A DNA stretch of 64,000 nucleotides from Acidobacteriota bacterium (GTDB lineage: Bacteria > Acidobacteriota > Thermoanaerobaculia > UBA5066 > Gp7-AA6). The stretch's first letter is position 1. Every line of letters starts with the position of its first letter. The notes beneath the pieces were generated by a model. That model was not told the origin of the DNA. It worked only from the letters and a program-made list of their open reading frames with translations, and made no database searches. This document shows, in pieces, positions 1 through 51,097 of this stretch. A program made the translations under genes and the position numbers. Where the stretch lies: positions 6,712 through 70,711 of the forward strand of contig DAHUXD010000019.1 of the NCBI GenBank assembly GCA_027307335.1, in the 5' to 3' direction.

Positions 1-453
1 CGCCGACACCGTCCGGCGGGGATCGACGACGACCAGCCGCGCCCCGTTGCGGATTCCCCGGAGAACGTGGTGAAAGTAGATGGGGTGCGCCTCTCGCGCG
101 TTCGATCCCCACAGGAGGATGATGTTCGCCTCCTCCGTCTCCCGGTAGGAGCTCGTCCCTCCGCCCGCCCCGAACACCGTCGTCAGACCGACGACGCTGG
201 GGGCGTGTCAGGTTCGATTGCAGCTGTCGATGTGGTTCGTGCCGAGGACCGAGCGCGCGAACTTCTGGGCGAGGTAGTTGACCTCGTTGGTCGCCTTCGA
301 GCAGGAGAAGAGGCCGATCGCGCCCGGCCCCTTCTCCGCCTTCACGCGCCGGAATCCTTCCGCCGCGCGGTCGAGCGCCTCGTCCCAGGACGCGGGGCGC
401 AACCGCCCTCCCTCGCGCACCATGGGTTCCGTCAGCCGGACGTAGGGCTTCAT
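1..453 (-). CDS. Formate dehydrogenase-family (MopB) molybdopterin oxidoreductase alpha subunit, N-terminal ~150 aa only (runs off window start). The in-frame TGA at 208-210 is interpreted as selenocysteine.
   Basis: Translation is MKPYVRLTEPMVREGGRLRPASWDEALD...GAIGLFSCSKATNEVNYLAQKFARSVLGTNHIDSCNRT-(TGA)-HAPSVVGLTTVFGAGGGTSSY. This matches the FdhF motif GTNNVDCCARV-U-HGPSVAGL, so the reading frame continues cleanly past the TGA. A GAGGAG RBS lies 6 nt upstream of the ATG at 453. No N-terminal Cys cluster is present, so this is the YdeP/FdhA-like subgroup. Confidence 0.8.
175..207 (-). promoter_or_regulatory. Candidate bacterial SECIS stem-loop immediately 3' of the UGA codon
   Basis: The mRNA after the UGA reads CAC GCC CCC AGC GUC GUC GGU CUG ACG ACG GUG. 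CGUCGUC pairs perfectly with GACGACG around a GGUCU loop, starting about 11 nt after the UGA. This resembles the E. coli fdhF SECIS apical loop AGGUCU. Confidence 0.55.
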
Positions 454-544
454 GGATCGCTCCTCACGGGAAAAGCCTAGCAGAGAGCCATCGGTTGATT
501 CGATCGCATCTCGCGCCCGGGACGGTTCGGGGGAAGCATGAGGC

Positions 545-1258
545 ATGCGCACCGATAGCGAAATTCACGTGCCCGTGATCGTTCCCGCGGCCGGCGCGAC
601 GCTTCACGGCGACCTGGCGGTTCCCGAGGCGGCGCTCGGAATCGTCCTGTTCGCGCACGGCAGCGGCAGCAGCCGCCGGAGCCCGCGGAATCGCTACGTG
701 GCCGAACACCTGCGCGCCTCGGGGCTCGCGACCCTGCTGCTCGATCTCCTGACCGAGGAGGAGGAGGCCGCCGATTTCGAGAGCGGGCACCTGCGCTTCG
801 ACGTTCCGTTCCTCGCGGGGCGGCTCCTGGCGGCGATGCGGTGGACGCTCGGCCGAAGCGAGACCGCGCGGCTGCCGCTCGGACTGTTCGGCGCCTCGAC
901 CGGCGCCGCGGCGGCGCTCGTGGCGGCGGCGCAGGCTCCCGAGGTCGTTCGCGCCGTCGTATCGCGAGGAGGCCGGCCCGATCTCGCCGGAGACGCGCTC
1001 GAGCGCGTCCACGCGCCCACGCTCCTGATCGTCGGCGACCGCGACGCCGACGTGCTCGCGCTGAATCGCGCGGCGAAGAAGCGGCTCGGCGGAGAGGTGC
1101 GGCTCTCCGTCGTCTCCGGCGCGTCCCACCTCTTCGAGGAACCGGGGACGCTCGCCGAGGTCGCGCGCCTGGCGGCGGCCTGGTTCCGGGGTCATTGCGG
1201 CGCGCTGTGGGCGCCGTCGGGCGCCGACCTGCTCGACGCCTCGGTCCGGGGAGAGTGA
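545..1258 (+). CDS. Dienelactone hydrolase family alpha/beta hydrolase
   Basis: Carries the DLH-family motifs HGSGSS and LFGASTGAAAAL (nucleophile elbow) and a C-terminal SHLF. It abuts the phosphoribosyltransferase gene as in known DLH-PRTase pairs. Confidence 0.75.
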   Translation: MRTDSEIHVPVIVPAAGATLHGDLAVPEAALGIVLFAHGSGSSRRSPRNRYVAEHLRASGLATLLLDLLTEEEEAADFESGHLRFDVPFLAGRLLAAMRWTLGRSETARLPLGLFGASTGAAAALVAAAQAPEVVRAVVSRGGRPDLAGDALERVHAPTLLIVGDRDADVLALNRAAKKRLGGEVRLSVVSGASHLFEEPGTLAEVARLAAAWFRGHCGALWAPSGADLLDASVRGE

Positions 1259-1260
1259 GC

Positions 1261-1935
1261 GTGTTCTACGTGGATCGCGCGCACGCGGGGCTCGCGCTCG
1301 CCGACGCGCTGCGTGAGTACGCGGGGCGGCCGGACGTGGTCGTCCTCGCCCTGCCGCGCGGCGGCGTCCCCGTCGCCTCCCGGGTGGCCGAGGCGCTCGA
1401 CGCGCCGCTCGACGTCTTTCTCGTCCGCAAGCTCGGCTTTCCCGGTAACGAGGAGTTCGCGATGGGCGCGATCGCCTCGGGCGGCGTTCGGATCCTGAAC
1501 GAGCCGGTGCTCGACCGCTACGGCGTTCCCGACGCGCTGGTCGAGGCGGTCGCCCGCCGGGAGGGACTCGAGCTCGCGCGGCGCGAGAAGTCCTATCGCG
1601 GCCATCTTCCGCCGCTCGAGGTGCGGGGCAAGACCGTGATCGTCGTCGACGACGGGCTCGCGACCGGGTTCTCGATGCGGGCGGCGGTGACCGCCCTGCG
1701 ATCGCTCGGTCCGCGGCGGGTGGTCGTGGCCGTGCCCGTCGGCCCCCGCGAGACCGTCGAGACCCTGCGCCGCCTCGCCGACGAGGTGGTCTGCCCGGCG
1801 ACGCCGGAGCCGTTCCTGGCGGTCGGCCACTTCTACGAGAACTTCGAGCAGACGTCGGACCATGACGTGGTCGATCTCCTGTCGCGGGCGCGTCGCCGCG
1901 AGCCCGCGAACGAGACCGCCGGGAGGGAAGCATGA
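1261..1935 (+). CDS. Phosphoribosyltransferase-domain protein (type I PRTase fold)
   Basis: Has the PRTase motifs VLALPRGGVPVA and VIVVDDGLATG. A GTG start lies 3 nt after the upstream stop. The longer ATG-started ORF 841-1935 overlaps the DLH gene and was rejected. Confidence 0.7.
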   Translation: MFYVDRAHAGLALADALREYAGRPDVVVLALPRGGVPVASRVAEALDAPLDVFLVRKLGFPGNEEFAMGAIASGGVRILNEPVLDRYGVPDALVEAVARREGLELARREKSYRGHLPPLEVRGKTVIVVDDGLATGFSMRAAVTALRSLGPRRVVVAVPVGPRETVETLRRLADEVVCPATPEPFLAVGHFYENFEQTSDHDVVDLLSRARRREPANETAGREA

Positions 1936-4149: not shown

Positions 4150-5651
4150 ACGGGCTTCGGGAGGCCCGCCGCTTCCGCCTTCAGATACGCGTCGATCGCG
4201 CCCGCCGCCTTGCGGCCGTGGCCCATCGCGAGGATGACCGTCGAGGCGCCCGCGACGATGTCGCCGCCCGCGAAGACGCCCTTGCGCGTCGTCATCATCG
4301 TCGCCTCCTCCACGACGAGCGTGCCGTGGCGCGTCGTCGTCAGTCCCCGCGTCGTCTTCGGGATCAGGGGATTCGGGCCGTTCCCGATCGCCTCGATGAC
4401 GATCTGGACCGGCAGCTCCTCGTAGGCGCCCTCGATCGGCATCGGGCGGCGGCGCCCCTTCTCGTCCGGCTCGCCGAGCTCGCACCGCTGGACCCTCAGC
4501 GCGCGCACCCAGCCGTCCGAGCCGGTGAGGATCTCGACCGGCGCCGAGAGCATGCGGAACTCGACGCCCTCCTCCTCGGCGTGATGGACCTCCTCGAGGC
4601 GCGCCGGCATCTCCTCGCGGGAGCGGCGGTAGACGAGGTAGACGCGCTTCGCGCCGAGGCGGAGCGCGGTGCGCGCCGCGTCCATGGCCACGTTGCCGCC
4701 GCCGAGGACGGCGACGTCGTCGCGACGGAGCACCGGCGTGTCCTCCTCGGGGAAACGGTACGCCCCCATCAGGTTCGCGCGCGTCAGGTACTCGTTGGCG
4801 GAGTAGACGCCGTTGGCGTCCTCGCCCGGGATGTTCACGAAGTAGGGGAGGCCCGCCCCCGTCGCGACGTAGACCGCGTCGAAGCCCTCCTCGAAGAGCT
4901 CGTCGAGCGTGAAGGTCTGGCCGACGATCGTGTCGAACTCGAACCGCACGCCCATCCTCTCGAGGTTGTCCACCTCGGCCTGGACGATGTCCTTCGGCAG
5001 GCGGAACTCCGGAATGCCGTAGACGAGGACGCCGCCGGCCTTGTGGAACGCCTCGAACACGACCGCCTCGTGCCCGAAGCGGCGCAGGTCGCCGGCGCAC
5101 GCGAGCCCGGACGGGCCGGCGCCGATGACCGCGACGCGCCGGCCCGTCTCCGCGCCGACCGGCGGCAGCTCCACGCCGCCCTCCTCGCGCTCCCAGTCGG
5201 CGAGGAACGCCTCGATCTTGCCGACCGAGACCGCGAAGCCGAGGTCCTTGTGGACCTTCGCGACCATGCAGTTTTCCTGGCACTGGCTCTCCTGCGGGCA
5301 GACGCGCCCACAGATCGCCGGCAGGAGGTTCGTCTCCTTGATGCGGCGGATCGCGCCGCGGAAGTCGCCGTCGGCGACGAGCTTCAGGAACGCGGGCACG
5401 TCGACGCCGACCGGGCAGCCCGAGACGCACGGCTCGTTCTTGCACGAGAGGCAGCGCACCGCCTCGGCGCGCGCCTGCATCGGCGTGTAGGCGAACGGGA
5501 CCTCGCGGATGTTGCCGACGCGCTCGCCCGGCTCCTGCTCGGCCCAGAAGATCTTGGGGAGCTGGCCGCGCTCCTTGTTCTTGAACTCCCCGCGGCGCTC
5601 GACCCGCGCGGCGAGTTCCTCGGCCGAAGGATTGACGCGGGTATTCGACAT
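4146..5651 (-). CDS. GltD-family NAD(P)H-dependent FAD/FeS oxidoreductase (NfnB/SudA-like; glutamate synthase small-subunit-like)
   Basis: Starts MSNTRVNP (501 aa). It has two N-terminal 4Fe-4S motifs (CLSCKNEPCVSGCP and CGRVCPQESQCQENC), a GAGPSGLACA Rossmann motif and a second dinucleotide fold (VLGGGNVAMD). The long ORF continuing to 6611 is an in-frame artefact. Confidence 0.8.
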   Translation of the reverse strand: MSNTRVNPSAEELAARVERRGEFKNKERGQLPKIFWAEQEPGERVGNIREVPFAYTPMQARAEAVRCLSCKNEPCVSGCPVGVDVPAFLKLVADGDFRGAIRRIKETNLLPAICGRVCPQESQCQENCMVAKVHKDLGFAVSVGKIEAFLADWEREEGGVELPPVGAETGRRVAVIGAGPSGLACAGDLRRFGHEAVVFEAFHKAGGVLVYGIPEFRLPKDIVQAEVDNLERMGVRFEFDTIVGQTFTLDELFEEGFDAVYVATGAGLPYFVNIPGEDANGVYSANEYLTRANLMGAYRFPEEDTPVLRRDDVAVLGGGNVAMDAARTALRLGAKRVYLVYRRSREEMPARLEEVHHAEEEGVEFRMLSAPVEILTGSDGWVRALRVQRCELGEPDEKGRRRPMPIEGAYEELPVQIVIEAIGNGPNPLIPKTTRGLTTTRHGTLVVEEATMMTTRKGVFAGGDIVAGASTVILAMGHGRKAAGAIDAYLKAEAAGLPKPV

Positions 5652-30365: not shown

Positions 30366-31235
30366 ATGCCCGAAGGCAACACCATTCACTGGCTGGCGCG
30401 CGTGCACACGCGCGACTTCGCGGCACGCCGGGTGCGCGCCGACTCGCCGCAGGGCCGCTTCGCCCGCGAGGCGCGGCGGCTCGACGGCCGTCTCTTCGAA
30501 TCCGCGGAGGCCTACGGCAAGCACCTCTTCCACCACTGGAGCGGCGGACTCGTGGTCCACGTGCACCTCGGGATGGCAGGTTGGTTCTACCGGCACCCCG
30601 CCCCGGCGCCGCCGCCGCGGCCGACCGTCCGCCTGCGCCTGGCGACTCGAGACGTCGCGACGGACCTGATCGGGCCGCCGACGTGCGAGCTGATCCCGGA
30701 GTTCGCGCGCCGGAAGCTTCTCGCGCGTCTCGGCCCCGATCCGCTGCGTCGGGACTTCGACCCGGATCGCGCGCTCGCCGAGCTCGTCCGGCGGCCGCGC
30801 CGCACGATCGGCGACGCCCTCCTCGATCAGCGCGTCCTCGCCGGTGTCGGCAACATCTATCGCGCCGAGGCGCTGTTCCTGACCGGCATCCACCCGAAGC
30901 GGGCGTCCGGGAACGTCTCGGCGGAGGAGTGGGAACGCCTCTGGAAGACGGTGCGCGCGCTCATGCGGCGCGGCGCCGTGCGCGGCCGCATCCGGACGAT
31001 CGAACCGGACGAGCCTCCGGCGCATCCGCTCGCGGGGCGCGCACCCGCGGATGCCTTTTACGTTTACCAGCAGGCGATCTGTCGGCGCTGTGCCTCGCCG
31101 CTCGAGGAGTTCCCGATGTCCGCGCGCCGGATGTTCGCGTGTCCCCGCTGCCAGCCCGAGCCGCGTCGCGGCTCGAAGCGCCGCGCGAAAGAGAAAAACG
31201 GCCGCGATCGGAAACGCCGCGCCGCCGCTCCCTGA
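30366..31235 (+). CDS. Fpg/Nei-family DNA glycosylase (formamidopyrimidine/endonuclease VIII-like)
   Basis: N-terminal MPEGNT catalytic Pro2/Glu3, an H2TH region, and a C-terminal zinc finger CRRC...CPRC. Confidence 0.75.
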   Translation: MPEGNTIHWLARVHTRDFAARRVRADSPQGRFAREARRLDGRLFESAEAYGKHLFHHWSGGLVVHVHLGMAGWFYRHPAPAPPPRPTVRLRLATRDVATDLIGPPTCELIPEFARRKLLARLGPDPLRRDFDPDRALAELVRRPRRTIGDALLDQRVLAGVGNIYRAEALFLTGIHPKRASGNVSAEEWERLWKTVRALMRRGAVRGRIRTIEPDEPPAHPLAGRAPADAFYVYQQAICRRCASPLEEFPMSARRMFACPRCQPEPRRGSKRRAKEKNGRDRKRRAAAP

Positions 31236-31533
31236 CGCCGTTCTCCTTCGGGAGCGGTGAACGCCGGAAACGACAAAAACGGTGCGCGGCACGTCGTCGC
31301 CGTCGCGGCCAGGGAGCTCGAATCGTCGCAACCGGCATGCCACCAGGGACGACGGTGGGTGGCGCGCGCGTTCGCTCGTGACGTTGTGCGGCGCGGGTCG
31401 ATCCGGGTCGTCACGCCGGCGAGGGATACGAAATGAGAGACGACGCGCCGACCCGCCACCGAGAGCCTCCGAAGAGAAGCGAAACGGCTGCGGCCCCGCG
31501 GTGTCCGGGGGGCCGCATCCGTTGCGCTCGAAG

Positions 31534-44457: not shown

Positions 44458-46917
44458 TCACTGCAGGTTGAATGTCTTCGTGATGAACACCGCCATCTGG
44501 CCGCGCGTGTTCGGGTTGCCCGGGCAGTAATTGCCGCCGCCGCACCCGCCCGTGATGCTCTCCGTCGCGAGCTGCTCGATCCAGTTGGCGAAGGTCGACG
44601 GACAGGCCACGTCCATGAATGCGCCGACGCATTCGGGAGGCACGTAGGCGGATCCGTGCTCGGCCTTCAGGAGGAACACGGCCATCTGATCGCGGCGGAC
44701 CAGATTCTGAGGGCAGAAGTTGCCGCCGCCGCAGCCGCCGGTGATGCCCTCGTTGGCCATGGCCTCGATCCAGTTGGCGAAGGTCGAGGGGCAGGGGACG
44801 TCGCCGAACATGCCGCTGCAGGGCGGCGGCGTGTAACAGAGCCCGTGCTTGGCCTTGAGGATGAAGACCGCCATCTGCTGGCGCAGCGTGTCGTCGGCCA
44901 CGCCGTACAGCCCGCCCCCGATGCCCGCGGTGATGCCGTTCGAGACGAGCTTCGTGACGTAGGAGTAGAACTGGTTGGCGTTGGGGACGTCGGTGAAGTC
45001 CGCGACGAACGCCTTGACCAGGGTGCCCTTCGAGCCGTCCGTGTTGGAAACGACGAGGTCGTTGGCGGTTCCCGGGGCGAGCGCGGGCGTCGTGGCATTC
45101 ATGTCGTTGTAATCCGTGACGCTGACTCCGGTCGCCGAGATGCCCCCGATCGTGACGGTCGCGCCCGCCAGGAAGTTGGTTCCATGGATGGTCAGGGCCG
45201 TGCCGCCGGACGGCGGCCCCGACTGAGCGCTGATCGAGAAGGGCAGGCGCTGGGAGAACTCGGAGGTGTTGCCGTTGGGATCGGTCGCGGTGACGGAAAT
45301 GCGATCTCCGCTCACCGTCGCGCCCAGCCCCGAGACGTTGAAGGTGACGTTGCCCGAGCCGTCGGTCGTGGCAGGGCCGGAGCCGAGGTAGGCCGCGCCC
45401 TGGACGTATTCGCGCGGGAAGTTCGAGCAGCCCGGGCTCGAGTAGAAGTCGAGCTGGAAGGTCGTGTTCGCGGTCGAGTTGAGAACGCCGGCGACGGTCG
45501 TGCTGGCCCCGTAGGTCACCGAAGAGACGACCGGAAAGTTCTGAAGGTTGTTCGGTCCCGTGTCCGCGTCGCCGAAGTCATTCGCCGTTGCGCCGTCGTC
45601 GTTGAGGTCGATGCCGGTCCCTGCGTTGTCGTGAATCGAGTTGCCGCGGATCGCGGTGCCGGCAACCGGTCCGGTGACTACCACGCCGGTCCCGGCGTTG
45701 AAGGCGATCAGGTTCCCGGCGCCCGGATCGGTGCCGCCGACGGTTACGTTGTCGGCCTGGAGCAGGACGCCCGGACCCTGGTTGCCGAGAGCGATCGTCC
45801 CGGTCACGTCCGTGCCGATGAAATTACCCTCGATCGTCGAGCCCTCCGCGTAAGTCATCGAGATTCCGGAGGTGGTGTTTCCCGAGATGACGTTCCCCGC
45901 GCCGGCGGCTGAGCCGCCGATCGTGTTGTTCCAGCCGCCGGAGGCGATGCCCGAGCTCGCGTTGCCGAGGGGCAAGGTGCCGGTGACGTCGGTGCCGATG
46001 AAGTTGCCCTGGATCACGTTGTTCGTGACCGTGTTGTCGTTCAGGCTGTTGCTGAGGGAGATGCCCCCGAGGTTCCCGGAGATGACGTTGCGCTCGGCCG
46101 GTGTCGTGCCGCCGATGTGGACGCCGGAGGTGACGTGACCGAGCACGATCCCCGGATAGACCCCCGGCAACGCGCCCGTGCCCAGTGCGTTGGTGCCGAT
46201 GAGGTTGCCCTGGATGACGTGGTTCGTGCCGCCGTTCGTCTCGATCCCCACGAAGTTGCCGGAGATGAGGTTGCGCGCCGCCGGCGTCGTGCCGCCGACG
46301 AGGACGTTGGTGATGGCGCCGTCGATCGCGATGCCATAGCCGAGGTTACCCTCGGCCGTCATTCCAGAGGGATCGACGCCGATGAAGTTGCCCTCGATCA
46401 CCATGTTCGACACGTCGACCTGGATCCCGGCGCTCCTGCCGCGGTTGAACACGAGCCCGCGGACGATGCTGCCCTGGCTCGTCCCGGTGAAGAGGAATAT
46501 TCCGAAGCCAAACGATGGGGTCAGGTTGACCCCGTCGAGCTCGATGAGCAGGACGGCGTTCGTTGCCTCCGTCGGCCCGTTCGTGTTCGCGCTCGTGCCC
46601 GGCTGCGTGTAGCCGTCGATCGTGACGGGGACCAGGATGTTGGGATAGTCCGCGGCCGGTGTGATCGTGTGGACGCCGGTCCCGGAAATGTTGAACGCGA
46701 TGGTCGAGCCGGAGTTCGCGTTCGCGAACGTGATCGCGTCGCGCAGCGTGCAGGTTCCCGTTCCGGTCGTCGCGCAGGCGCCCATGGAATCGCCCGTATC
46801 GGTGACCGTCACGGTCGCGGCGTTCGCGGCGCATGCGAGGAGAAGCAGGAGCGTGCCGGAGAGCCACACCGCGACGCGGGGATATCCGACCCGGGACTCC
46901 GGAGTCGAAGCACTCAT
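44458..46917 (-). CDS. Large secreted right-handed beta-helix (pectate-lyase/NosD-like) surface protein with an IPT/TIG domain and a C-terminal triple SLH-like module
   Basis: Signal peptide, many GNxIxGN beta-helix rungs, and three C-terminal repeats of F.DVP..FANWIE...GITGGCGGGNFCP...MAVFL. Confidence 0.75.
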   Translation of the reverse strand: MSASTPESRVGYPRVAVWLSGTLLLLLACAANAATVTVTDTGDSMGACATTGTGTCTLRDAITFANANSGSTIAFNISGTGVHTITPAADYPNILVPVTIDGYTQPGTSANTNGPTEATNAVLLIELDGVNLTPSFGFGIFLFTGTSQGSIVRGLVFNRGRSAGIQVDVSNMVIEGNFIGVDPSGMTAEGNLGYGIAIDGAITNVLVGGTTPAARNLISGNFVGIETNGGTNHVIQGNLIGTNALGTGALPGVYPGIVLGHVTSGVHIGGTTPAERNVISGNLGGISLSNSLNDNTVTNNVIQGNFIGTDVTGTLPLGNASSGIASGGWNNTIGGSAAGAGNVISGNTTSGISMTYAEGSTIEGNFIGTDVTGTIALGNQGPGVLLQADNVTVGGTDPGAGNLIAFNAGTGVVVTGPVAGTAIRGNSIHDNAGTGIDLNDDGATANDFGDADTGPNNLQNFPVVSSVTYGASTTVAGVLNSTANTTFQLDFYSSPGCSNFPREYVQGAAYLGSGPATTDGSGNVTFNVSGLGATVSGDRISVTATDPNGNTSEFSQRLPFSISAQSGPPSGGTALTIHGTNFLAGATVTIGGISATGVSVTDYNDMNATTPALAPGTANDLVVSNTDGSKGTLVKAFVADFTDVPNANQFYSYVTKLVSNGITAGIGGGLYGVADDTLRQQMAVFILKAKHGLCYTPPPCSGMFGDVPCPSTFANWIEAMANEGITGGCGGGNFCPQNLVRRDQMAVFLLKAEHGSAYVPPECVGAFMDVACPSTFANWIEQLATESITGGCGGGNYCPGNPNTRGQMAVFITKTFNLQ

Positions 46918-46986
46918 TTTGCCTCCACGTTTGCGAGGCGCAATCTATCCCACGCGCGAGAAGGGCCGCCGGCGGCGCGGAGAAGC

Positions 46987-47003
46987 TGGTGGAGGCGTTC
47001 GCA
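46987..47003 (-). repeat. tmRNA 3'-end-like direct repeat (att-like scar); extended similarity runs to about 47035
   Basis: TGGTGGAGGCGTTCGCA is identical to 48935-48951. The downstream GGCGGGACGTGAACCGCGTCCGG matches the ssrA 3' end GGCGGGAGTTGAACCCGCGTCCGG. Confidence 0.6.
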
Positions 47004-47042
47004 GGGCGGCGGCGGGACGTGAACCGCGTCCGGGCGCCGGCT

Positions 47043-47324
47043 CTATCGGTAAGCGTCCTTTCGATGGTCGGCGGCCGTCAGGAACACGACACGCTTGTCG
47101 TCGTCGATCTCGTAGAAGATCCGCCAGGCGCCGATCCGGATTCTCCATGTCGGAGGGTCCCACTCCTTGAGGCGCGCCGCGGACGGCACCTCGCGAGGCG
47201 CGGCCCTGAGGACCGGGTAAACGCGTTCCGTCAGAGTGTTCTGGATTCGCCGGGCCGCCTCCGCTCCGAGGCCGTCGAGGTCGCGCCGGAAGCCCGAGGT
47301 CTCGAAGAGCCGATACTCAGACAA
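47043..47324 (-). CDS. RelE/ParE-family type II toxin
   Basis: 93 aa, with WRIRIGAWRIFYEIDDDKRVVFLTAADHRKDAY matching the RelE/ParE fold consensus. It overlaps the upstream antitoxin by 8 nt. Confidence 0.7.
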   Translation of the reverse strand: MSEYRLFETSGFRRDLDGLGAEAARRIQNTLTERVYPVLRAAPREVPSAARLKEWDPPTWRIRIGAWRIFYEIDDDKRVVFLTAADHRKDAYR

Positions 47325-47556
47325 ACCGGCCCTTGCGGGAAGCCGCTTCGCGATGACCTCTCTTCAGGCGTTTCCGAAGAGCGGAATCCGAACGAATCCC
47401 GGCCATCTCGGAATCGGAGACGAAAATCTCCGAGGCGGCGCGTTGCAGGGCGGCCGTCTCGATGAAGTTCGAAACCGAGCGGTTCTGGGCGGCGGCCGCT
47501 TCCGCGATGAGGCGGTATGCCGCGTCGTCGATGCGGACGGTCAACGATTTGGGCAT
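47317..47556 (-). CDS. Ribbon-helix-helix type II antitoxin (ParD/CopG-like)
   Basis: 79 aa, beginning MPKSLTVRIDDAAYRLIAEAAA. Sits immediately upstream of and overlapping the toxin. Confidence 0.6.
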   Translation of the reverse strand: MPKSLTVRIDDAAYRLIAEAAAAQNRSVSNFIETAALQRAASEIFVSDSEMAGIRSDSALRKRLKRGHREAASRKGRFV

Positions 47557-47614
47557 TGCATCACTCCGATGTCATTTTAACATCACAGTGATGCACTCGG
47601 TCAGGACGGAAAAT

Positions 47615-47640
47615 TGGCGGAGGCAGCGGGAGTGGAACCC
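47615..47640 (-). repeat. tmRNA 3'-end-like direct repeat (att-like scar)
   Basis: TTGGCGGAGGCAGCGGGAGTGGAACCC compared with the ssrA TGGTGGAGGCGGCGGGAGTTGAACCC. It lies in a lower-GC stretch. Confidence 0.5.
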
Positions 47641-47777
47641 ATGGAATTCTTGCCAATTCCTGAGTGATTTCGAGCTACCCCCCCGAATTATCCGTCTCTT
47701 TGTCCGCGTTTCCCGGCCGCATCTGGGTTGCTGGCCACTTTGGGGGATTTCCTTCCATACTCCGAGTCGGAGGCACC

Positions 47778-48116
47778 ATGTCGCAAGATCAAGCAGTCGC
47801 TCCCGGACTCGAAGGCGTCGTATTCGCCTCGGCTCTCGTTACCTGCCAGCCCGGAACCGTGGTCAGCCGTACGCTCGTACGGAAGCCGGCCGGCACGGTG
47901 ACGGCCTTCGCGTTTGATGCCGGTGAGGGCTTGAGCGAGCACACGGCGCCGTTCGATGCCTTGGCCCTGGACCTCGAAGGCGAAGCCGAGATTTCCATTG
48001 CCGGCACGCCCCACCGTCTCAGCGCAGGTCAACTTCTAAGGCTCCCTGCTCAACAGCCGCACGCCGTGAAGGCAATCACCCCGTTCAAGATGTTGCTCGT
48101 CATGATCAAAGCATGA
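47778..48116 (+). CDS. Cupin-domain protein
   Basis: GGAGG RBS. Cupin motifs (G..HTAPFDALALDLEGEAEI and P...PHAV). Confidence 0.55.
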   Translation: MSQDQAVAPGLEGVVFASALVTCQPGTVVSRTLVRKPAGTVTAFAFDAGEGLSEHTAPFDALALDLEGEAEISIAGTPHRLSAGQLLRLPAQQPHAVKAITPFKMLLVMIKA

Positions 48117-48174
48117 GACTCCTCCTCGAACGAGGGAGTGAAGCCATGGAGCTCTCGCCGGCAGAGCATTCTCA

Positions 48175-48855
48175 ATGACCGAAACCAGCCGCTGGGACGA
48201 GGCCGGGACCGTCGGGAGCTTCTCCACAGCCGCCGCCAACAGGGTCCTCCTGGAGTTCGTTCGCACCGAAATGGCTCGTTGCCCGAGGCTGCGCATCCTG
48301 GACCTCGGTTGCGGTGCGGCCCGCAACGCCGCACCCATGGCGGCACAGGGGGGCACCGTGGTCGGCACGGACGTGTCCTGGCCGATGCTGGTCGCCGCAC
48401 GCCGGCGGGTCGCAAGAGAAGGCGTGGCCGGACGGGTCGCACTCGTGCGGGGGTCCATGGATTACCTGCCACTGCGCGACGCGAACGTCGACCTCGTGAT
48501 CGCGCACGGGATCTGGAACCTCGCGCGCTCGGCCGCCGAGTTTCGCCGCGCGGTCGCCGAGGCGGCCCGCGTCGCTCGGCCGGGCGCGGGTCTCTTCTTG
48601 TTCACCTTCTCCCGCACCACGCTCCCCCCCGAGGACCGGCCCATCCCGGGCGAGCCCTTCGTGTTCACCCGGTTCGCCGGCGAACCGCAGTGTTTCCTGA
48701 CCGAGGCGCAGGTGAAGGAGGAGCTGCTCCGGGCCGGATGGGAGAAGGACCCGCCCGGGCCTCTCATCGAGTACAACCGACCCGTCGCCGGGAGCGCCAT
48801 CCCACAGGGCGGTCCCGTGATCTACGAGGGGACTTTCCGCCGGCTGGGTCGTTAG
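48175..48855 (+). CDS. Class I SAM-dependent methyltransferase
   Basis: Motif I (ILDLGCGAARNA) and the post-I acidic residue (GTDVS). Confidence 0.7.
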   Translation: MTETSRWDEAGTVGSFSTAAANRVLLEFVRTEMARCPRLRILDLGCGAARNAAPMAAQGGTVVGTDVSWPMLVAARRRVAREGVAGRVALVRGSMDYLPLRDANVDLVIAHGIWNLARSAAEFRRAVAEAARVARPGAGLFLFTFSRTTLPPEDRPIPGEPFVFTRFAGEPQCFLTEAQVKEELLRAGWEKDPPGPLIEYNRPVAGSAIPQGGPVIYEGTFRRLGR

Positions 48856-48934
48856 TCGGCCGCGCTTCGCGCGGCGACCCTGGCAACCCAGCAACGGGCC
48901 GAGAAGCCCAGCCCTCACTTCGATGAATTTGAAT

Positions 48935-48951
48935 TGGTGGAGGCGTTCGCA
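48935..48951 (-). repeat. tmRNA 3'-end-like direct repeat (att-like scar)
   Basis: TTGAATTGGTGGAGGCGTTCGCA. This shares a 17-mer with 46987 and shares TTGAA.TGGTGGAGGCG with the ssrA 3' end. Confidence 0.6.
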
Positions 48952-49153
48952 AAGGATTAGAGCCGCGAGAGACTCTTTGGAGGCAGCCTCGTTCGACGCC
49001 AGAATCCCGCCCCACCAACGCATCGCGGCTGACGCCGCCCGCGGCGTGCCCTCGAGCCGGTCGCCCCCGCGCGCCCCAAGCGCGGGGTGCCTGATGCCTC
49101 TACATCTCGTGGGGAGGACCTTCCCCGGCTAGTGTCGGGCTTCGGAGGCCACC

Positions 49154-50410
49154 ATGCTCGCGTGCAGGTCCTTCATTTGCGCGTTCGCTCTTCTCGCTCC
49201 GCTCGTCCCCGGGACCAACGGGGCGCTCGGACAGGCCTTGCCTCCCGAAAGCGCCAGGGTGCGGCTGGGCGAGAAGCTCTTCTTCGACACGTCGCTCTCC
49301 CGGCCGCCCGGCCAGTCCTGCGCCGACTGTCATGGGCCCGCCGTCGGCTTCACCGGTCCCGACGAGAAGATCAATCGGGGCGGGGCCGTCTACGAGGGCG
49401 CCTTCCACGGGCGCTTCGGCAACCGCAAGCCGCCGAGTATCGCCTACGCCGACGCGCCGGCCTTCGGCATGCGGAAGGAAGACGGCGAAGCCGTGTTCTA
49501 CGGGGGAAGCTTCTGGGACGGCCGCGCCACGGGATCGCGGCTCGGCAGCGCGCTCGCCGAGCAGGCCCTCGGACCGTTCCTCAACCCTCTCGAGCAGAAC
49601 CTCGCCGACGGCGCCGCCGTCGTCGCGAGGGTCTGCGCGGGCAACTACGTATCTCTGCTCAACGAGGTCGCCCAAAAGGAGAAGGGTATCCAGGATGCCT
49701 GCGCGCCCGGAAACGCCGCGGTCGTCTACGACGTCATCGGCCTCTCGATCGCCGCGTACGAGACGTCTCGGAAAGTGCAGCCCTTCTCATCCCGATACGA
49801 CTCCTTTCTCGCCGGCAAGGCTGAGCTCAACGAGCAGGAGAAACTGGGGCTCGCCCTCTTCGCCGGCAAAGGCCGTTGCAGCCGGTGTCATCCGCACGAG
49901 CGCGGTCCGAAGGGAGAGCCTCCCCTCTTCACCGACTTCACTTACGACAACATCGGCCTGCCGCCCAACCCGGCCAATCCCTTCTACAGGATGGGTCCCG
50001 AGCACAACCCGGCCGGCGCGGCGTGGAAGGACCCGGGACTGGCCGGCTTCCTGAAAGAGGATCCGCGCTATGCCCGGTTCGCGGACGAGAACGTCGGCAA
50101 GTTCAAGGTTCCCACGCTGCGCAACGTCGACCGGCGGCCGTCGCCCGGGTTTGTCAAGGCGTACGGCCACAACGGCTTCTTCAAGAGCCTCGAGGAGCTC
50201 GTCCACTTCTACAACACGCGCGACGTCTTTCCCGCCTGCGGCGCGACGAGCGAACCGAAACCGGGGCGCAACTGCTGGCCGGCTCCGGAAGAGCCGCGCC
50301 AAGTCGAGCACGAGAACACCGGGAAGCTCGGCCTGACGGCGAGCGAAGAGGCCGCGATCGTCGTGTTCCTGAAGACGCTCGACGACCAGCCGTCGCCGCC
50401 GGCTCGCTAA
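49154..50410 (+). CDS. Diheme cytochrome c peroxidase (CCP/MauG family)
   Basis: Signal peptide, two heme motifs (CADCHG and CSRCHP), and a conserved Trp/PHN region. Confidence 0.8.
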   Translation: MLACRSFICAFALLAPLVPGTNGALGQALPPESARVRLGEKLFFDTSLSRPPGQSCADCHGPAVGFTGPDEKINRGGAVYEGAFHGRFGNRKPPSIAYADAPAFGMRKEDGEAVFYGGSFWDGRATGSRLGSALAEQALGPFLNPLEQNLADGAAVVARVCAGNYVSLLNEVAQKEKGIQDACAPGNAAVVYDVIGLSIAAYETSRKVQPFSSRYDSFLAGKAELNEQEKLGLALFAGKGRCSRCHPHERGPKGEPPLFTDFTYDNIGLPPNPANPFYRMGPEHNPAGAAWKDPGLAGFLKEDPRYARFADENVGKFKVPTLRNVDRRPSPGFVKAYGHNGFFKSLEELVHFYNTRDVFPACGATSEPKPGRNCWPAPEEPRQVEHENTGKLGLTASEEAAIVVFLKTLDDQPSPPAR

Positions 50411-50736
50411 CCGGGGCCGACCGCCGGGAAGCCGCGACAGCGCGGCCGCGTCCCAAGCCGCTCGTGGAGGGCCCTGGCTATGTTGGCTCGTCGCGAGATG
50501 ACGAGGTTGAACCTCGAGAAGGAACCTGAACGGCCGGTGGCTCCAGGGTCCAGGAAGTCCTGGAGCGACGTACCGAGCTGCTCCTGAGAGCGCTCCTCGG
50601 GAAGATCCTGCTGAAAGCGGCCACGCGGGAGAACGGGAGGTCCTACTCCCGAGCGGTGTCGAAGCTGCAGGTCCTGGCGCTGCTCGACGTCCCATCGACG
50701 CCAGACAGTGCGGAGCCCGGTTCTACGTCATTGAAA

Positions 50737-51097
50737 TGGTGGAGGCGGCGGGAGTTGAACCCGCGTCCGGAAGCGCGACGGGAGAGGCCACTCCATGCTC
50801 AGCCTCTTCTTGGTTCTCGCCCCGCCGCCTCGAGAAGAGGCAAAACGGCGGAAGGGCAACCCCGGATTCGTTTCGCACGAGCGGCCGGGGGACCGCGCGC
50901 GCTACACCCGAATTTCGCGACGTCGGCCGGAGCGCGTCGGGTGCGCTCACCGTCCAACGAGGCTACTTAATTAAGCAGCCAGAGCGAAGTTGCTGTTGTT
51001 CGCAGCTACTATTTTTCACCCTGCTTTTACGAGGAGGGGTGAGACCTCGGCATGCAACCTCTCGCGCCGACGTCCCCGTCGAAGCCGTTTCGCCCCC
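50737..51097 (-). ncRNA. ssrA: tmRNA (SsrA)
   Basis: 5' end GGGGGCGAAACGGCTTCGACGGGGACG and 3' end GGACGCGGGTTCAACTCCCGCCGCCTCCACCA. The internal tag reading frame GCG AAC AAC AGC AAC TTC GCT CTG GCT GCT TAA gives ANNSNFALAA followed by a stop. Confidence 0.9.

Follow-up and report, generated by a model that had tools for sequence, protein, structure and literature searches.

Islets between copies of the tmRNA gene 3′ end in an acidobacterial genome, probable remnants of serial site-specific integration

Overview

Downstream of ssrA, the gene for transfer-messenger RNA (tmRNA), three islets of 0.6–1.8 kb together fill 3.75 kb of a 64-kb stretch of acidobacterial DNA (Thermoanaerobaculia; contig DAHUXD010000019.1 of assembly GCA_027307335.1, positions 6,712–70,711). 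This whole stretch is referred to as the window, and its first nucleotide is position 1. The islets are delimited by partial copies of the ssrA 3′ end, the outermost of which abuts the flank of an SLH-domain surface protein gene. The array very probably consists of decayed integrative elements that entered one after another by site-specific insertion at the 3′ end of ssrA. A preliminary description of the window had proposed such serial integrations, each leaving an attachment (att) scar, and this proposal is supported by the repeats themselves, by a recombinase remnant that runs into ssrA, and by single islets and unoccupied sites in related loci.

Copies of the ssrA 3′ end in the window

The ssrA gene (50737..51097, minus strand; tag AANNSNFALAA) was identified with ARAGORN and by a full-length match to the Rfam model RF00023 (177 bits). 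The attL side of the array is formed by the 3′ end of ssrA at 50737, which reads TGGTGGAGGCGGCGGGAGTTGAACCCGCGTCCGG on the plus strand. Within the window there are three exact occurrences of the 11-mer TGGTGGAGGCG, all on one strand (at 46987, 48935 and 50737). With one mismatch allowed, shuffled sequences contain about two matches, and none of 100 shuffles equalled the observed number of 11-mer matches. A further copy at 47615–47640 agrees in 23 of 26 positions with ssrA, counted over the first 26 nt of its 3′ end, where chance would give none. The copies at 46987 and 48935 have the exact 17-mer TGGTGGAGGCGTTCGCA in common, and beyond the former, separated from it by an insert of 13 nt, 47008–47038 can be aligned with the T-arm part of ssrA.

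In a scan of the whole window on both strands, the copies at 46987 and 47615 were the top two non-self matches to the ssrA 3′ end. The copies at 48935, 47615 and 46987 are all co-oriented with ssrA, and no others are present in the window. The three same-orientation echoes of the gene end reported in the preliminary description were thus recovered by the 11-mer, 26-nt and window-wide scans, and the 17-mer and the degenerate T-arm of the 46987 copy that it had listed were likewise borne out. A fourth ssrA-like fragment at about 48975–49000 was dropped, its score being below background in the window-wide scan. Rfam searches of 46800–50720 at a permissive threshold yielded nothing beyond a weak tRNA-like match at the 47615 copy (E = 2.4).

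Across 571 kb comprising the window and related loci, the core 11-mer (CGCCTCCACCA in ssrA orientation) was found at 68 ssrA ends and at four downstream sites on the same strand, with no occurrence upstream of ssrA or on the opposite strand. This confinement excludes a dispersed repeat family unrelated to ssrA, which the preliminary description had named as an outcome that would speak against integration.

In the independent Logan assembly L001, the genes between and including the SLH gene and ssrA follow each other in the same order. The Logan unitigs L001 and L003, both from one sample, end or start within the last ~30 nt of ssrA (window ~50740–50765); the assembly graph thus branches at the att core, as would be expected if the sample contains strains that differ beyond ssrA.

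A serine-recombinase remnant and its ssrA-adjacent family

In islet 1 (48952–50736), which adjoins ssrA, 326 bp separate a cytochrome c peroxidase gene from ssrA, and the ~190 nt of these nearest ssrA recur in conserved form beside the gene in seven other loci, likewise on its downstream side. Here, at 50548..50736 (plus strand; the last 64 residues being encoded over 50548–50739), a pseudogene remnant was detected that comprises the ~64 C-terminal codons of a large serine recombinase, in frame, free of stop codons and running into the ssrA 3′ end. The remnant is 62.7 % identical (tblastn, E = 1e-16) to a 550-aa protein encoded at the matching position of the related locus L152, which carries the Pfam domains Resolvase, Recombinase and Zn_ribbon_recom and is therefore a large serine recombinase. 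Alignment with three recombinase C-termini gave 66–73 % identity. The same segment is also the element-side (P′) arm of attL. The statement in the preliminary description that no integrase remains is contradicted by this remnant; nothing functional remains, however. The remnant is of the serine type and not of the usual tyrosine type. No integrase genes were found in islets 2 and 3 by open reading frame (ORF) and Pfam scans. As the only trace of an integrase is the 64-codon stub in islet 1, and each island would be expected to hold its own, the islands are classed as decayed.

More than 1100 database proteins match the L152 recombinase at E < 1e-30. Seven contigs were sampled among L168–L175, with recombinases 62–100 % identical to the L152 protein. 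In all seven, the CCA end of a tmRNA gene is the exact point at which the conserved part of the recombinase stops; the contigs represent five different tmRNA tags and differ in their neighbour genes. Gene callers prolong the recombinase ORF by ~76 codons antisense through ssrA, resulting in 626-aa calls (e.g. L169 10001–11881). The intact islands exceed 10 kb, and their cargo includes genes for CBASS, mercury and copper resistance (MerT/HMA/Cu-oxidase), UvrD/PDDEXK proteins and RND/CDF transporters. A MerR-like gene (~190 aa) and an ORF of ~65 codons adjoin the recombinase gene; a second Resolvase-domain gene or ParB was absent from the gene tables of L168–L175. No relatives of the recombinase were found in viral contigs. 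Downstream of ssrA in ~20 representative related loci, no tyrosine integrases were recognised among ORFs judged by eye only.

Anatomy of the scars

Scar A (48935..48951, minus strand) comprises, in ssrA orientation, the 11-bp core CGCCTCCACCA together with 6 nt (TGCGAA) of an element arm. The surrounding sequence reads GGCTCTAATCCTTTGCGAA, then CGCCTCCACCA, then ATTCAAATTCATCGAAGTGAGGGC, the first of these (48952..48973, minus strand) being the putative element-side (P) arm of a serine-recombinase attR. This arm forms an inverted repeat of the arm found beside ssrA in intact islands (TTGCAAAGAATTCGAACCGG), with ~16 of 21 positions agreeing by eye. Serine integrases have attP sites that form imperfect palindromes. 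When the reconstructed attP was scanned for symmetry, 13 of 21 positions matched about an axis at the TC of the core. Across the core from this arm, the sequence at 48870..48934 (minus strand) is homologous by alignment to the terminator-like stretch immediately after ssrA at two unoccupied sites (L007 and L166), which fits the chromosomal side of an attR. Flank homology, inverted-repeat arm and symmetry together lead us to infer that scar A is the attR of the element whose stub lies at attL, with an arm ending TTTGCGAA followed by the core CGCCTCCACCA. The crossover point would probably be the TC in the middle of the core, which lies on the acceptor stem's 3′ strand.

Scar B (47615..47640, minus strand; repeat family D17) is the copy of 26 nt and spans the gene end between T-stem and CCA; its counterpart in the related loci L142 and L163 contains an exact block of 22 nt. 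At 46987, two scars are combined in one composite copy, termed scar C. Its inner part (47008..47038, minus strand) is a degenerate copy of ssrA from about −40 to −8, which covers the T-arm and the first part of the acceptor strand; at least 33–40 nt are common with ssrA, and an equivalent is present in locus L126 and, as a perfect 63-nt repeat, in L120. The outer part (46987..47007, minus strand), which abuts the flank of the SLH gene, is a candidate second attR of the serine-recombinase type (GCCCTGCGAA + CGCCTCCACCA). Its outer 17 nt (CTGCGAA + core) are identical to the 17-mer of scar A, and a homologue of the outer motif (GCCCTCGTTTGCGAA + degenerate core) is held by L142 and L163 just before the flank of a sigma factor gene. 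The core is preceded by TTTGCGAA or CTGCGAA at scars A and C of the window and in L142 and L163. The longer identity blocks at scars B and C point to crossovers deeper in the gene and hence to other recombinases, so that at least two att classes, or kinds of element, appear to have used the ssrA site.

Two candidate attP forms were sought in viral contigs and rejected. The 17-mer TGGTGGAGGCGTTCGCA gave 15 hits, nearly all in coding sequence (LVEAFA motif) and with no tRNA or tmRNA gene nearby, which were judged to be chance matches; a degenerate attP pattern gave two chance hits with neither recombinase nor tmRNA.

In L120, the sequence that follows the perfect 63-nt scar, ~706–740 nt past ssrA (ttccaagaattcgtcc), weakly resembles the serine-recombinase arm (ttgcaaagaattcgaacc). 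This weak similarity hints that the toxin-antitoxin element of L120 may have displaced a serine-recombinase attL.

Related loci downstream of ssrA

The cystathionine lyase gene beside ssrA has its closest relatives in Thermoanaerobaculia/Acidobacteriota metagenome-assembled genomes (81–91 % identity). A 33-nt query from the tag region retrieved 68 soil-metagenome contigs with the same tmRNA, and these contigs together with L005 and L007 provided ~50 loci with sequence past the 3′ end of ssrA. This region is a synteny breakpoint, its first 400 nt falling into ~30 classes.

An unoccupied site, for which the preliminary description had suggested looking, was found in L007 and L166, where an ECF (extracytoplasmic function) sigma factor gene begins 67 nt past ssrA. 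The same flank is present in L005, separated from ssrA by an 859-bp insert (a different islet) and a 65-nt copy of the ssrA 3′ end. Islets of the window recur singly elsewhere. L126 carries a pair of RHH (ribbon-helix-helix) antitoxin and ParE toxin genes with 92 % DNA identity to islet 3 of the window, followed by a degenerate ssrA fragment and then the window's SLH gene (87 %). L142 and L163 carry the methyltransferase and cupin genes of islet 2 (89 %; window 47619–48869 against L142 d+114..1368, 88.8 % DNA identity), then a 22-nt exact ssrA fragment and the sigma factor gene. In L120 and L145 an RHH-ParE islet 78 % identical to that of the window ends in a perfect 63-nt ssrA repeat. All repeats in these loci are co-oriented with ssrA. 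The preliminary description had also named, as an observation against integration, the same genes in the same order without repeats; relatives instead carry single islets or none.

Given the single islets in relatives and the confinement of the core to ssrA, the three segments of the window are regarded as separable modules bounded by att-type scars. The displaced-fragment signature seen in relatives and the restriction of the repeats to ssrA uphold integration at the ssrA 3′ end, which thereby withstood both observations that had been named against it.

A second variable spot lies on the other side of ssrA, between the lyase gene and cutA, with insertions of 4.6 kb (L005 11127–15750) and 1.5 kb (L007 11129–12628) that are absent from the window. 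In L147, two inverted copies of the ssrA tag region (229–261, minus strand; 5508–5540, plus strand) accompany inverted cutA and lyase fragments, an arrangement that is probably an assembly artefact.

Genes and composition of the islets

The gene content assigned to the three segments in the preliminary description (cytochrome c peroxidase; cupin plus methyltransferase; RelE/RHH pair) was confirmed by Pfam. The sole intact gene remaining in islet 1 codes for a di-haem cytochrome c peroxidase (49154..50410, plus strand; CCP_MauG, E = 6.5e-28) and was not found beside ssrA in any related locus compared. Islet 2 comprises the genes for a class I S-adenosylmethionine-dependent methyltransferase (48175..48855, plus strand; Methyltransf_25/11) and a cupin (47778..48116, plus strand; Cupin_2), which share 90 and 98 % amino-acid identity, respectively, with the L142/L163 copies. 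Islet 3 harbours the genes for an RHH (CopG/TacA-like) antitoxin (47317..47556, minus strand; RHH_1/TacA1) and a toxin of the ParE/RelE superfamily (47043..47324, minus strand; ParE_toxin, 37 bits, E = 4.5e-9), the upstream antitoxin gene overlapping the toxin gene by 8 nt. Amino-acid identities amount to 94 % in L126 and 77 % in L120/L145 for the antitoxin, and to 97 % in L126 and 81 % in L120 for the toxin. The pair is predicted to be a type II toxin-antitoxin system consisting of a ParE/RelE toxin and an RHH antitoxin.

A stretch of lowered GC content, previously placed at about 47560–47760, was reproduced as a dip to 0.55–0.58 around 47400–47850, with a low of about 0.55 near 47560–47780, compared to 0.71 for the whole window. 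Islet genes have third-position GC (GC3) contents of 0.70–0.87 versus 0.91–0.97 in five flanking core genes, and overall GC contents of 0.63–0.68 versus 0.71 in the window; the islet genes are few and short and the differences modest. The lowered GC3 is consistent with a foreign origin.

Beyond the array, the chromosomal flank is formed by the gene for a surface protein with SLH, beta-helix and IPT domains (44458..46917, minus strand; Pfam). Within this gene lie a tandem duplicate of 189 nt and repeats spaced ~180 nt apart, which correspond to beta-helix turns (window 44476–44853 and 45700–46400). Elsewhere in the window, a match to the small RNA family CyVA-1 of Rfam was detected at 31219–31292 (minus strand; 52.8 bits against a gathering score of 41.4).

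Proposed history of the array

Each element would insert in the 3′ end of the tmRNA gene, rebuild this end from its own att site and displace the earlier end outward as a scar. A serine-recombinase element is proposed to have inserted first and later to have been deleted nearly completely, followed by the toxin-antitoxin element, then by the methyltransferase-cupin element and last by a serine-recombinase element with the peroxidase gene; deletions would then have stripped the mobility genes. Islet 1 would be the newest, brought by an element with a large serine recombinase, of which the last 64 codons at attL, the peroxidase gene and the attR at 48935 may be the residue. Islets 2 and 3, with their 26-nt and at least 33–40-nt copies of ssrA, may go back to at least one other recombinase that crossed over deeper in the gene. 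At 46987, the end of islet 3 would be fused to the older serine-recombinase attR beside the chromosomal flank. The survivors may represent those parts that deletion could not remove, i.e. the ssrA junction, the short scars and an addictive toxin-antitoxin pair.

Several findings weigh against this history. The symmetry test of the reconstructed attP is only moderately significant, as 39 of 5000 shuffles also reach 13 matches. The TTTGCGAA arm is not seen at the far end of any live element: no attR was found within 10 kb in five intact serine-recombinase islands, a scan in which the far end was never reached. No recombinase or remnant was found to account for scars B and C, nor was the attP form found in viral contigs. 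The 65 nt past scar A resemble the flank of a sigma factor gene that is absent from the window, where neither the ECF sigma nor the YCII genes that follow ssrA in relatives occur anywhere, and an extra assumption is required to explain this. The peroxidase gene is never seen together with an intact recombinase, and its role as cargo is thus one that we infer. Finally, the islets have diverged about as far as their flanks, so that the patchiness among loci may reflect loss from an old array instead of separate gains.

Gain, loss and alternative explanations

This last point leads to the alternative that merits most attention, namely that the islets were acquired once, in a common ancestor, and that the patchwork of the window, L126 and L142 arose by deletion between co-oriented ssrA fragments. 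We regard such a single old array as a possibility to be taken seriously, albeit not a probable one. Nucleotide identities of the islets to their relatives (78–92 %) are close to those of the flanks (76–87 %), as is evident for L126 (islet 92 %, SLH gene 87 %), L142 (islet 89 %, cutA 87 %) and L120 (islet 78 %, cutA 76 %). Since islet identity tracks flank identity, there is no sign of recent transfer, an idea that was considered and found unsupported; loss by recombination between scars explains part of the patchiness as well as separate gains do. Moreover, the spacer and arm motif after the single scar of L142 are those found after scar C of the window, the pattern expected if L142 had lost the toxin-antitoxin islet by recombination between scars B and C. 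Serial integrations would nevertheless still be required to build the array. In addition, the methyltransferase-cupin islet precedes the sigma factor gene in L142 but the toxin-antitoxin islet and the SLH gene in the window, and the perfect 63-nt repeat around a toxin-antitoxin islet of 22 % divergence in L120 and L145 argues for a recent event there.

It is also conceivable, although improbable, that the islets are non-autonomous, cis-mobilizable cassettes whose att sites are still acted on in trans by a recombinase, be it resident or visiting, with ssrA serving as a cassette platform. The recurrence of the same compact islets with att-type ends in several genomes, the mere 633 bp enclosed by the perfect 63-nt repeats of L120, and the circulation of intact ssrA-specific recombinases in the same clade would agree with such units, and Dehalococcoides islands devoid of an integration module have been proposed to be cis-mobilizable (PMC3146451). 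Scars B (23/26) and C (insert and indels) of the window are degenerate, however, no circular forms were seen, and a serine recombinase requires complete half-sites on both sides. The ssrA-proximal ends furthermore differ among copies of one islet (window versus L142; window and L126 versus L120), which is better explained by independent deletions than by a defined mobile unit. Likewise improbable is the broader proposal that a widespread family of ssrA-specific large serine recombinases, whose 11-bp core lies in the acceptor arm and whose frame is completed across attL, moves the small integrase-less islets (toxin-antitoxin, methyltransferase-cupin) in trans in an integron-like manner, besides bringing in large defence and resistance islands.

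Chance similarity, dispersed repeats or a local duplication of the gene end by slippage or unequal crossing-over, without any mobile element, could be invoked because the 48935 copy has only 11 nt in common with ssrA in a genome of 71 % GC, but this is hardly credible in view of the shuffling result, the restriction of the core to ssrA ends and downstream sites and never the other strand, the recombinase remnant abutting ssrA, and the relatives with single islets or unoccupied sites.

Relation to known systems

Serial integration at the ssrA 3′ end as proposed here makes the array a known kind of structure, with precedents in tmRNA-gene islands and, specifically, in the ssrA islands of Dehalococcoides. 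It provides a picture of a heavily used integration site after decay, in which one islet may be held in place by its toxin-antitoxin pair, and integrase-based island finders would miss islets of 0.6–1.8 kb.

The cis-mobilizable elements (CIMEs) in arrays of streptococcal integrative and conjugative elements (ICEs) possess att sites of demonstrated function, and accretion with an ICE mobilizes them. Like CIMEs, islets 2 and 3 are flanked by att sites and lack integration and transfer genes; in contrast to those of CIMEs, the att copies of the window are degenerate.

Tycheposon islands of Prochlorococcus likewise result from repeated integration at tRNA and tmRNA genes and contain fragmented integrases and scattered partial tRNA copies of older events (bioRxiv 10.1101/2020.12.28.424599). 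The accumulation of integrase fragments and partial target-gene copies is common to both systems. Tycheposons, in contrast, mostly carry tyrosine recombinases and often replication modules, and the remnants of the window, which belong to a soil acidobacterium, are much smaller (0.6–1.8 kb).

In islands of tRNA and tmRNA genes generally (Williams 2002, 2003; Islander; TIGER), the target gene is restored by the element, co-directed displaced 3′ fragments mark the island ends and later arrivals push older islands outward, all of which is matched by the array described here. Tandem arrays are known as well, and the tmRNA gene is the most enriched target (PMC4383910, PMC7192596). The Islander and TIGER surveys ascribe the targeting of such genes (tDNA) to tyrosine integrases, and Islander demands an integrase per island (PMC4383910, PMC7192596). 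The array of the window would fail this integrase filter, and its sole recombinase trace is of the serine type. Probably more useful than the array itself is a by-product of the analysis, a family of large serine recombinases located exactly at the tmRNA gene 3′ end in every contig sampled, which contrasts with surveys that attribute tDNA targeting to tyrosine integrases only.

The closest precedent is provided by Dehalococcoides, in which tandem islands downstream of the single-copy tmRNA gene are each bounded by a 20-bp repeat that copies the 3′ end of ssrA, and in which DsiB, a 540-aa serine recombinase, overlaps ssrA at attL (PMC3146451). DsiB is part of a six-gene integration module together with DsiA, RecF-like, ParB and Mom proteins and an embedded tRNA-like gene, and some islands have no such module (PMC3146451). 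The acidobacterial loci agree in the tandem arrangement of islands downstream of the tmRNA gene, in short direct repeats of its 3′ end, in a serine recombinase of ~540–550 aa at attL with a frame running antisense into ssrA (here intact in relatives), and in the presence of islands without an integration module. They differ in their phylum (Acidobacteriota, class Thermoanaerobaculia, versus Chloroflexota), the repeat length (11 versus 20 bp), the presumed crossover position (3′ strand of the acceptor stem versus mid T-loop), and the genes accompanying the recombinase (a MerR-like protein of ~190 aa and a ~65-aa ORF in intact relatives versus DsiA, RecF, ParB and Mom). The recombinase of the window is cut to 64 codons, and the likeness to DsiB noted here is one of arrangement and, in the intact relatives, of size. 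With the Dehalococcoides precedent published, the ssrA-specific serine recombinase family extends known biology and is not a discovery; for strain engineering, a serine integrase that targets the end of a gene universally conserved in bacteria could be of practical interest.

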